Virus record (IMG/VR): IMGVR_UViG_2541047174_000010
Span: 1-13,032 of that record
Source of the DNA: a virus
Taxonomy: Duplodnaviria > Heunggongvirae > Uroviricota > Caudoviricetes
DNA length: 13,032 nucleotides
Strand: one strand, 5' to 3'
Made by a program: the position numbers. Below, piece after piece: positions 1-3,000 of this stretch (positions are counted from its first letter, which is position 1; the number at the start of each line of letters is the position of its first letter).

Positions 1-3000
1 GTTTGCTGTTTATTAAAAACACTTCTGCATGGTGAATCCCCCTGTGCGGTGGGGCAATCAGCAAGAAGGAATATGGGGTAATCGCGGATTCAGGTGCTGA
101 TACTGAATTCACCGGGAGGCACCCGGCACCATGCTTTGCCACAAAAGTGTTATTTCTGTTTTTCTCAAACTATCATCGTTATCCCTTTATTTCCGGCTGC
201 GCATGGCGCGGCCTTTTTTTTACGACCAGCCACTGGCAGATGGTCATCCTGTGATTTGATTCCGGTTCCGGCTTTTTAACTCTGTTCCTGTACACGGGAG
301 AAATTCGATGTCGATTAAACATTATGATGTTGTCAGGGCGGCGTCGCCGTCAGATCTTGCGGAAAAGCTGACACACAAACTGAAAGAGGGCTGGCAGCCG
401 TTTGGTAGTCCTGTGGCCATAACCCCTTATACCCTGATGCAGGCGATTGCCGCGGAGGGGGATGTGACCACGCCAGTGGTTGTGCCCGGCACGGGGGATG
501 GTGGCTATCCGGGAGTGGTCACCACGGAGCCAGATTATTACTACGTTATTCCACTGGCCGGGCAGTCGAACGGCATGGCTTACGGTGAGGGGCTTCCTCT
601 GCCGCAGACATATGACCGTCCTGACCCGCGTATAAAGCAACTGGCTCGTCGCAGCACAGTGACGCCGGATGGCGCTCCCTGTAAATATAACGACATTATT
701 CCGGCAGACCACTGTCTGCATGATGTACAGGACATGAGCCGTCTTAACCATCCGAAAGCTGACCTGTCGAAAGGTCAGTACGGAACCGTGGGGCAGGGGC
801 TGCATATTGCCAAAAAGCTGCTGCCGTTTATACCGGCGAATGCGGGTATTCTTCTGGTTCCGTGCTGCCGTGGTGGTTCAGCTTTCACCACCGGGGCAGA
901 TGGAACATACAGTGACGTGACCGGTGCCTCAGAGAGTTCTACCCGCTGGGGTGTGGGCAGGCCGCTGTATAAGGATCTCATCGGTCGTACAAAAGCCGCG
1001 CTGGCAAAGAACCCGAAAAATGTGCTGCTTGCCGTGGTGTGGATGCAGGGGGAATTTGACTTTGACGGAACGCCAGCAAATCACACAGCCCGTTTTACAG
1101 AAGTAGTGGAACAATATCGTACGGACCTTGCAGATATGGTGGGACAGTGCGCTGGTGGTTCTGCTGACGGTGTTCCCTGGATATGTGGAGACACAACTTA
1201 TTTCTGGAAGCAGAAGAGCGAATCCACTTACCAGACGGTGTACGGCAGTTACAAAAACAAAACGGAAAAGAATATTCACTTTGTGCCGTTCATGACCGAT
1301 GAGAACGGAGCAAATGTCCCGACGAACAAACCGGAAGAAGACCCGGATATTCCGGCATCAGGATATTACGGTGCGGCCTCCCGGACGTCGGCAAACTGGA
1401 CGTCAGCAGACCGTGCGAGCCATTTCAGCTCATGGGCACGCAGGGGGATTATTTCTGACCGTCTTGCCTCAGCGATTCTTCTCCATGCAGGACGGACGGC
1501 TGAACTGGTGGGTGGGGAACAGGTTGTGATGCCGCCGGATGAGAAGCCGTCACCGGACACACCATCAACACCGTCAACGGACGGGAAATCAGTGACAACG
1601 CTGCTTTATTACCGTGCAACAGAGTCAGGTGGTTTACTGAATCCGCAGGGATGGGGAGCTGAAGGAGGGCGTGCATTGGTAGTTGATGATGCAGGTGCTG
1701 CAGGAGGTAAGGCGCTGAGGTGGACCAAACAGACAGGAAGTTCCTCGTGGTTTATGCAGCATGATGCCGGTAATGGCGCAGACCTGCTGGAGAAGGGCGG
1801 GCTTATCAGTTGTCGTTTTAAAGTTGATGGCACACTGACAGCTAATCAGTACGCACTGGCGCTGTACTGGCCGGTTTCTTCACTGCCTCAGGGTGTCACA
1901 CTGGAAGGTAATGCCGGTCATAACCTGCTGGCGTCGTTTTACGTACAGAGCGATGCCACAGACCTTAATGTGATGTACCACAAGGGAAATGCTGGTCAGA
2001 ACACGAAGCTGGGGTCATTCGGCGCATTTGATAACGAATGGCATACGCTGGGCTTCCGTTTTGCCGGTAACAACAGTATTGAGGTGACGCCGGTCATTGA
2101 TGGTAAGGACGGGACGCCGTTCATGCTGTCACAGTCACCGGTCGGCACGTTTACGGCAGACAAATTGCGCGTGACCGATATCACTAGCGGTGCGACATAT
2201 CCGGTGCTGATTGAAAGTATAACAGTGGAAGTGAATAACCCGTAAGCAGGAAAAAAAGGCCGCCGGGGCAGGGAAAACAAGGAGCCAGAACCGGCGGCAA
2301 ATGTCGTTATATCCAAAGCAAAACATGCAGGACACTTTTTTAACCAACAGGTATTAACGATGTCAACACCATATCAATAACCGGGAGGGATAATGAGATT
2401 TGTACAGCTTATTTTATTGTATTTCTGCACGGTGGTGTGCACGTTATATCTGGTAAGTGGCGGGTATAAGGTTATCCGGAACTATATACGCAAAAAGATT
2501 GATGCCGCGGCGGCGGAAAAAATCAGCGCCAGCCAGTCAGCCGGAACAAAACCCGAAGAGCCTCTCATTTCGTAGCAACTTTCTTAACAACACCTTTCAA
2601 CGAGAAAATCCCATGTCAGAAATAAAATCTCTGGTCACTGCTGAAGCAGTGAAGGACGTCCTGCGCTCTGAAGAAGTCAGAAGCGCACTGAAACAGCAAC
2701 TCCGCCAGAATCTTGAGGCGCGTCTTGATGCTGAAGTGGATGCCATTCTGGATGAGCTGCTGGGGGGACCGGCTGCTCCTGAGCCTGAAGACGGCGCGGG
2801 TGACAGTGCTGTTTCAGATGGCGTTGTGTCTCAGCCTGACGGTAGCAGTGAGCCTCAGCCTGGCGGCGAAATGATGATGTAACCATACGCAGGGGCTGTC
2901 GGTGTGAGCTGATGCCCCTCCTGTTGTTGTGAGCTTCCGGATTGCGGGAGACGGGGTATGTACCAGATGGAAAAAATCACAACGGGTGTGTCATACACCA

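Follow-up and report, generated by a model that had tools for sequence, protein, structure and literature searches.

The window analysed here, a 13,032-bp stretch of tailed-phage DNA (IMG/VR virus record IMGVR_UViG_2541047174_000010, positions 1 to 13,032), is the start of the late operon of a lambdoid prophage and carries two small genes, open reading frame (ORF) 1 of the DUF1378 family and ORF2 of the DUF826 family. Both are genuine protein-coding genes under purifying selection, and the pair is located inside the Q-antiterminated late transcript, between an esterase gene and a pinholin gene. The genes themselves are no discovery, because both are already catalogued as Pfam and PHROG families and carry annotations in hundreds of genomes. 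The novelty lies in a map of their context, which shows each of the two families repeatedly bordering lysis cassettes in unrelated phages and makes a role in lysis testable. We tentatively favour the reading that the two are accessory genes of the late operon with an action at lysis, and not cargo for the lysogen, with a confidence that falls well short of even.

A preliminary description of this DNA, made from the sequence alone, had placed two small uncharacterised ORFs at 2393-2882, between the esterase and the holin. Both were found there, and the esterase and lysis genes that it named on either side were identified by Pfam and PHROG matches. ORF1 matches the DUF1378 profile over positions 1-59 of 59 (E-value: 5.8e-40, 135.7 bits, gathering cutoff 25) and ORF2 matches the DUF826 profile over positions 1-73 of 75 (E-value: 1.2e-34, 118.7 bits, gathering cutoff 25). 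Each is a full-length member of its family (PF07125/PHROG 494 and PF05696/PHROG 311, respectively) and differs from it in no respect; neither family has an assigned function. The 712-bp segment that contains both ORFs is present at 100% identity in 326 complete E. coli genomes, mainly O157:H7, in which the NCBI annotation reads "DUF1378 family protein" and "DUF826 domain-containing protein". When phage records were searched using tblastn, DUF1378 was found in 309 and DUF826 in 307, with a near-identical organism make-up; almost all of these records are Shiga toxin (Stx)-converting phages, including 933W (L0106) and VT2-Sakai. The earlier view that these ORFs carry undescribed function thus holds in that no function has been assigned to them, but the proteins are described families, and proteins identical to ORF1 and ORF2 occur on approximately 1000 or more contigs.

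The pattern of substitution shows coding constraint in both genes. The median pairwise dN/dS (ratio of nonsynonymous to synonymous substitution rates) is 0.20 for DUF1378 (60 distinct alleles) and 0.31 for DUF826 (75 distinct alleles). Within ORF1, pN/pS (the corresponding ratio for polymorphisms) is 0.31 in the membrane segment versus 0.88 in the tail, while within ORF2 it is 0.48 in the core, 0.73 in the acidic tail and 0.34 in the last three residues. Constraint is therefore strongest in the membrane helix of ORF1 and the helical core of ORF2, and both tails are near-neutral. In some records, a 139-141-aa ORF starting inside ORF1 is annotated (VT2-Sakai orf43, phrog_8301); in the window it would be 141 aa in length, from GTG 2457. 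Where the two frames overlap (2457-2575), the ORF1 frame has a pN/pS of 0.45 and the ORF2-extension frame one of 1.19. As constraint is observed in the ORF1 frame only, we take ATG 2613 as the true start of ORF2 and reject the 141-aa ORF as an over-extended annotation in a frame without coding constraint. A natural DUF1378-DUF826 fusion, or a programmed frameshift between the two, is rejected for the same reason, the 139-141-aa "fusion" being this annotation. Real fusions do exist (P0204 and P0232), each a singleton on one contig, and a further apparent fusion (P0115) looks like a homopolymer error.

The preliminary description of ORF1 as a 60-aa single-pass membrane protein with a strong ribosome-binding site (RBS) agrees with what was found. 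Its RBS is the strongest among the five genes compared, and the protein has a single hydrophobic segment (Kyte-Doolittle 19-residue maximum of 2.28 at residues 3-21) after which comes the basic stretch YKVIRNYIRKKID. AlphaFold2 models the protein as one unbroken helix from residue 2 to residue 49, of which approximately residues 3-24 would form the membrane helix, with the basic tail predicted to be cytoplasmic. A hydrophobic segment followed by a K/R-rich one fits the positive-inside rule and predicts an N-out/C-in orientation. The motif GGY-K/R-x-I/V-R, which we call the interface motif, is invariant in the family.

ORF2 was likewise correctly anticipated to be an 89-aa acidic protein with a helical N-terminal half and a disordered tail. 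Its pI is 4.06 and its net charge approximately -12.5 (Asp+Glu = 19). AlphaFold2 predicts helices at residues 10-17 and 20-50, with a pLDDT (predicted local distance difference test score) of 90-97 over residues 21-50, while residues 57-87, the acidic tail, have a pLDDT <50 and are predicted to be disordered. In the family alignment, the helical core (residues 1-51) is conserved, the acidic Pro/Glu/Ser tail varies and the C-terminal MMM/MML is again conserved. In some O157-type contigs (L011, L018, L029 and L008; for example, L011 6221-6979), the DUF826 match stops at residue 52 and the holin lies approximately 410 nt farther off than usual, which suggests an insertion or replacement in the acidic tail.

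The features that surround the pair are as follows:

1-167, plus strand: STnc100-type leader RNA (Rfam RF02076, full-length match, 100.7 bits)
195-213, plus strand: strong intrinsic terminator, tR'-like, 3' of the STnc100 leader (terminator scan)
308-2245, plus strand: NanS-p-type sialate O-acetylesterase, 645 aa (Pfam DUF1737 + SASA + DUF6645)
2383-2389, plus strand: Shine-Dalgarno sequence GGGAGGG of ORF1 (read from the sequence; predicted duplex with the 16S 3' end of -10.8 kcal/mol)
2393-2575, plus strand: ORF1, 60 aa, DUF1378 family (Pfam PF07125, phrog_494; RefSeq WP_001213059.1)
2613-2882, plus strand: ORF2, 89 aa, DUF826 (Pfam PF05696, phrog_311; WP_001289717.1)
2958-3173, plus strand: P21-type class II holin (pinholin) with an M1/M4 dual-start motif (Pfam Phage_holin_2_1, E-value: 1.1e-32)
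3173-3670, plus strand: lysozyme with an Ala/Gly-rich N-terminal signal-anchor-release (SAR) segment (Pfam Phage_lysozyme, E-value: 1e-45)
3655-4134, plus strand: Rz i-spanin (Pfam Phage_lysis, E-value: 2.6e-28; phrog_13)
3887-4093, plus strand: Rz1 o-spanin embedded in Rz, lipobox VVGCSS (ORF listing)
4308-4327, plus strand: intrinsic terminator after Rz, the next strong plus-strand terminator-like site 3' of the pair (terminator scan)

The terminator at 195-213 marks the start of the Q-dependent late transcript that contains the pair, and the terminase, portal and capsid genes follow the terminator at 4308-4327. A scan of positions 1-5000 found neither a plus-strand promoter-like site nor a strong terminator from 213 to 4308, although this was a simple consensus scan that weak or atypical promoters may escape. 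As neither a promoter nor a terminator brackets the pair, ORF1 and ORF2 look to be part of the Q-dependent late transcript. The upstream gene, nanS-p, shows a rise of 1-2.4 logs on treatment with mitomycin C, as expected under late-operon control. The STnc100 RNA and terminator at 1-213 resemble the pR' leader and tR' of a late operon (compare the 6S RNA of lambda). The holin of the window is 83% identical to K-12 EssD and carries its own antiholin via the M1/M4 dual start, and the SAR-type N-terminus of the lysozyme was read from the translated sequence.

The preliminary description had named a lack of conservation in related prophages as part of what would refute it, and the gene order in related contigs decisively contradicts such a lack. 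In lambdoid E. coli-type viral contigs, the same order of esterase, DUF1378, DUF826 and P21-type holin was found with fixed spacing in 80/80. The holin 3' of the pair is 90-100% conserved in these loci, versus 30% to 98% identity for the endolysin and Rz. An esterase gene is present in every lambdoid locus whose contig reaches far enough upstream, and DUF1378 is the next gene in 62/62 close relatives of the esterase C-terminus that have room downstream.

In several other phage groups, one or other of the two families is found on the far side of the lysis genes. The cassette of BUCT709-like phages consists of a P21-like pinholin, a SAR lysozyme, Rz/Rz1 and, as the last gene, DUF1378, an order observed in 24 IMG/VR contigs, five metagenome contigs and Stenotrophomonas phages BUCT708/709. 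Here the DUF1378 ATG overlaps the Rz stop by 4 nt, and DUF1378 is translationally coupled to Rz. Rosenbergiella-type prophages encode a holin_8 protein, a GH19 endolysin, Rz/Rz1 and DUF1378, followed by DUF2560 or an HNH endonuclease and then terminase; in one of these (L084), DUF1378 overlaps Rz by 1 nt, while in a related contig (L219) a 74-aa ORF lies between Rz and DUF1378. A P2-like element has the order holin, SAR-like lysozyme, spanins, esterase, DUF1378 and tail-completion gene GpR. DUF826 is found without its partner in approximately 55 Salmonella Fels-1-like contigs, in which a lone 60-77-aa DUF826 gene with hairpins on its flanks lies approximately 200 nt after Rz and before the terminase genes, adjoining a class I holin and a soluble lysozyme. 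The earlier statement that neither protein resembles a lysis protein is accordingly correct at the sequence level but misleading as to context, given the build of DUF1378, its place as the last gene of lysis cassettes and the position of DUF826 after Rz. In L084, the gene after DUF1378 (6172-6450) encodes DUF2560, an uncharacterized phage family with a Ser/Thr-rich tail, and sits where the E. coli phages have DUF826; comparison of DUF826 with this 92-aa Rosenbergiella ORF using hhalign found no similarity.

These contexts are the basis for the reading that the pair acts at lysis. DUF1378 overlap with the Rz stop in other phages implies late lytic co-expression, and a 50-60-aa inner-membrane protein (the length range of the DUF1378 family) that is produced minutes before lysis most plausibly acts on lysis. 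The highly conserved membrane helix with its GGY-K/R-x-I/V-R motif suggests a specific membrane partner. More specifically, and with somewhat less confidence than we attach to a lysis role in general, it is possible that DUF1378 is the founder of a novel family of membrane-tethered regulators of lysis (releasin- or antiholin-like but unrelated in sequence), that DUF826 is its acidic cytoplasmic cofactor and that, in Stx-type prophages, the pair governs the moment or the abruptness of pinholin/SAR-endolysin lysis. In the lysis reading as a whole, DUF1378 would insert into the inner membrane N-out/C-in, with a basic helix of approximately 35 residues facing the cytoplasm. Its conserved membrane helix (LYFCTVVC...SGGY) would pack on a membrane partner, for which the pinholin helices and the SAR domain of the endolysin are candidates, and this packing may tune the timing or sharpness of endolysin release in the manner of an antiholin or of the Mu releasin gp25. 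DUF826 would be a soluble, acidic, helical protein of the cytoplasm that may, as a cofactor or buffer, associate with one of two basic regions, the DUF1378 tail or the holin C-terminus. The complementary charges of the DUF1378 tail (approximately +3) and DUF826 (approximately -12) count in favour of this reading. As P21-type cassettes work without the pair, its role would be accessory and not essential.

The closest parallel is with phage Mu. Releasin gp25 is a membrane-tethered cytoplasmic protein that is needed to release the Mu SAR endolysin and is encoded just after the spanins (PMC9239132). Both gp25 (DUF2730) and DUF1378 are small, and for both a single N-terminal membrane helix with N-out/C-in topology is predicted, which would place most of the protein in the cytoplasm; both occur with SAR endolysins and with soluble ones; and the post-spanin slot of gp25 is the slot of DUF1378 in the BUCT709-like, Rosenbergiella-type and P2-like elements. 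The two differ in length (50-60 aa versus 99 aa for gp25) and in setting: ORF1 of the window is upstream of a functional-looking pinholin and endolysin, not downstream of the endolysin as releasin is, and Mu has no holin. The likeness to releasin would thus be one of membrane topology and gene position, not of sequence. With the holin/antiholin regulators, ORF1 shares a generic build (60 aa, one membrane helix, a charged C-terminus and a position beside the holin) that is not diagnostic, and its likeness to the S21 71 antiholin is architectural only. The pairing itself has a possible, likewise architectural, counterpart in T4, in which the antiholin RI acts with the cytoplasmic cofactor RIII. 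In both cases, a small membrane protein and a small, soluble, helical cytoplasmic protein are found in association with a holin.

Several observations weigh against a lysis role and keep our confidence in it low. Adjacency to lysis genes is weak evidence because both flanks of the lysis cassette are general hot spots for the insertion of accessory genes. The lysis genes in these neighbourhoods are of mixed type, with pinholin/SAR systems in some and soluble endolysins beside holins of class I or the holin_8 type in others, which implies no single lysis partner. In Mu-like phages (approximately 20 viral and 18 metagenome contigs), the esterase-DUF1378-DUF826 trio lies at the accessory right end, after the gin invertase, with no lysis gene nearby, and in Cedecea the neighbours of DUF1378 are a tail-fibre gene and dam. 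P21-type lysis does not need the pair: both families are absent from the DLP12 and Qin cassettes of K-12, whose holins are 83% and 80% identical, respectively, to that of the window. Three loci (L327-329) have esterase, DUF1378 and holin without DUF826. The RBS of ORF2 is weak (-3.0 kcal/mol). Finally, DUF1378 has no DUF2730 match in Pfam at an E-value ≤ 1, and hhalign comparison of the family alignment with gp25 gave a probability of 0.2.

Searches beyond the two families yielded few leads. The profile searches and structure predictions that had been recommended were run, and the only matches were to DUF1378 and DUF826, with no other family assignment. In Pfam and PHROGs, ORF1 matched only DUF1378 and phrog_494 (category "unknown function"), with no homology to holin families. 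NCBIfam and a PDB sequence search gave no meaningful match for either protein. When the DUF826 model was searched against PDB and BFVD using Foldseek, nothing was found below an E-value of 0.9, as expected for a helix with a disordered tail; the single-helix model of DUF1378 was not searched. A word-indexed search of 5.8 billion proteins returned Escherichia/Shigella entries only for both families, and when 1.84 billion cluster representatives were searched exhaustively by profile, only 54 representatives of DUF826 were found. When one genome per species was scanned, DUF1378 was found only in Cedecea neteri and three Rosenbergiella species, and DUF826 was found in none. Two K-12 proteins considered as possible family members, YbcW and YnfN, do not match. 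In the literature, both DUFs are named in one paper only, in a single sentence (PMC10462455), and no dedicated paper was found; a second match for a DUF name proved to be a typographical error for DUF1738.

The preliminary description had proposed that the position of the pair, upstream of the lysis cassette, is a common slot for lysogenic-conversion, superinfection-exclusion or anti-defence cargo. The slot was correctly recognised: accessory genes, stx and nanS-p among them, are known from the Q-to-S region (PMC10462455) and also from the region after Rz. The cargo proposal fared less well, as nothing favours any of these functions in particular and no promoter or terminator brackets the pair. 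On such a reading, the two genes would be moron-type cargo serving the lysogen, with DUF1378 an inner-membrane superinfection-exclusion protein and DUF826 an acidic anti-defence protein or DNA mimic. DUF1378 would then be of a kind with gp15 of phage HK97, a small inner-membrane superinfection-exclusion protein. Like lambdoid morons and accessory genes (stx, nanS-p and bor), the pair has a Q-to-S or post-Rz position, a variable presence and a narrow host range; DUF826 is strongly acidic, and its stand-alone Salmonella relatives are flanked by hairpins. The working of P21-type cassettes without the pair (DLP12 and Qin) also fits cargo, as does the location of the pair in Mu-like phages, and of DUF1378 in Cedecea, in accessory regions remote from the lysis genes. 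Unlike those morons, however, the pair has no detected promoter or terminator of its own in the window scan, the overlap of DUF1378 with the Rz stop elsewhere points to expression in the lytic phase and the induction of nanS-p by mitomycin C is late-operon behaviour. Furthermore, no homology to known exclusion or anti-restriction proteins was found in Pfam or PDB-type searches, and among PADLOC defence models ORF2 had no match and ORF1 only a chance-level one (E-value: 0.039). We consider cargo for the lysogen unlikely.

Less probable again is a functional unit of esterase, DUF1378 and DUF826, in which the pair would serve the NanS-p esterase by tethering it, acting as its chaperone or timing the release of this signal-less enzyme. 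The constant association of DUF1378 with the esterase C-terminus and of the esterase with the lambdoid loci is as this predicts, and the trio moves as a block to Mu-like phages that lack a holin, remaining complete even in divergent variants. One such case is a Mu-like phage inside an Stx1a phage (LC727895.1; L087 2152-7289), in which the stretch between gin and the right end encodes a NanS-p-like esterase of 680 aa, a DUF1378 protein, a DUF826 protein of divergent sequence and a C5 cytosine methylase; the esterase module has therefore spread beyond lambdoid phages. In the P2-like element, esterase and DUF1378 form a joint insertion after the spanins. Yet joint inheritance as a single block does not count as independent evidence, and each family is found without an esterase: DUF1378 in BUCT709-like phages, Rosenbergiella-type prophages and Cedecea, and DUF826 in Salmonella prophages. 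In O157:H7 TR01, the pair is intact beside a truncated esterase pseudogene.

Equally improbable is some other late function, such as packaging or morphogenesis, or a marginal function kept mainly by linkage to a successful module: the Salmonella DUF826 relatives directly upstream of terminase genes, the near-neutral tails of both proteins (pN/pS of 0.73-0.88) and the retention of the pair in seemingly defective prophages (frameshifted portal; truncated esterase) would fit, but many alleles show purifying selection on the cores, both families turn up independently in several genome architectures that are unrelated to one another and an inner-membrane protein of 60 aa is unlikely to be part of the virion or of the packaging machinery.

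Three further features of the window were observed. None of 5,426 complete E. coli genomes covers ≥80% of it (the best covers 72% at 90% identity), and the window is therefore a mosaic prophage; despite this, its 712-bp segment with both ORFs is 100% identical to O157:H7 prophages. The portal gene (7751-9257) is broken at approximately bp 8778 by a frameshift in a T run (GAATTTTTTCC): an intact 502-aa homologue aligns in frame 2 over its residues 1-343 and in frame 3 over its residues 343-502. Two portal fragments are annotated in related O157 genomes, so the prophage may be unable to form particles, although the break may also be a sequencing error. Lastly, the approximately 800 bp between Rz and a DUF1441-type small terminase gene (4135-4948) contain only the 4308-4327 terminator and unconvincing ORFs. 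This is the post-spanin slot that houses DUF1378 or DUF826 homologues in other phages, and a related genome has a hypothetical protein and an HNH pseudogene annotated at the matching site.

In essentially every Stx-converting phage examined, the pair lies between the toxin/esterase genes and the lysis genes, and it follows from this location that the two proteins are made as the enterohaemorrhagic E. coli (EHEC) cell commits to bursting. If the pair tunes the timing of lysis, then both toxin yield and phage yield would be affected, and the amounts of phage, Shiga toxin and NanS-p esterase released by an induced EHEC cell would be influenced by it. A second, unrelated family would also be added to the recently described releasin-type control of endolysins. 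If the pair has no role in lysis, DUF1378 and DUF826 are still among the most widespread uncharacterized small proteins in the prophages of pathogenic E. coli.

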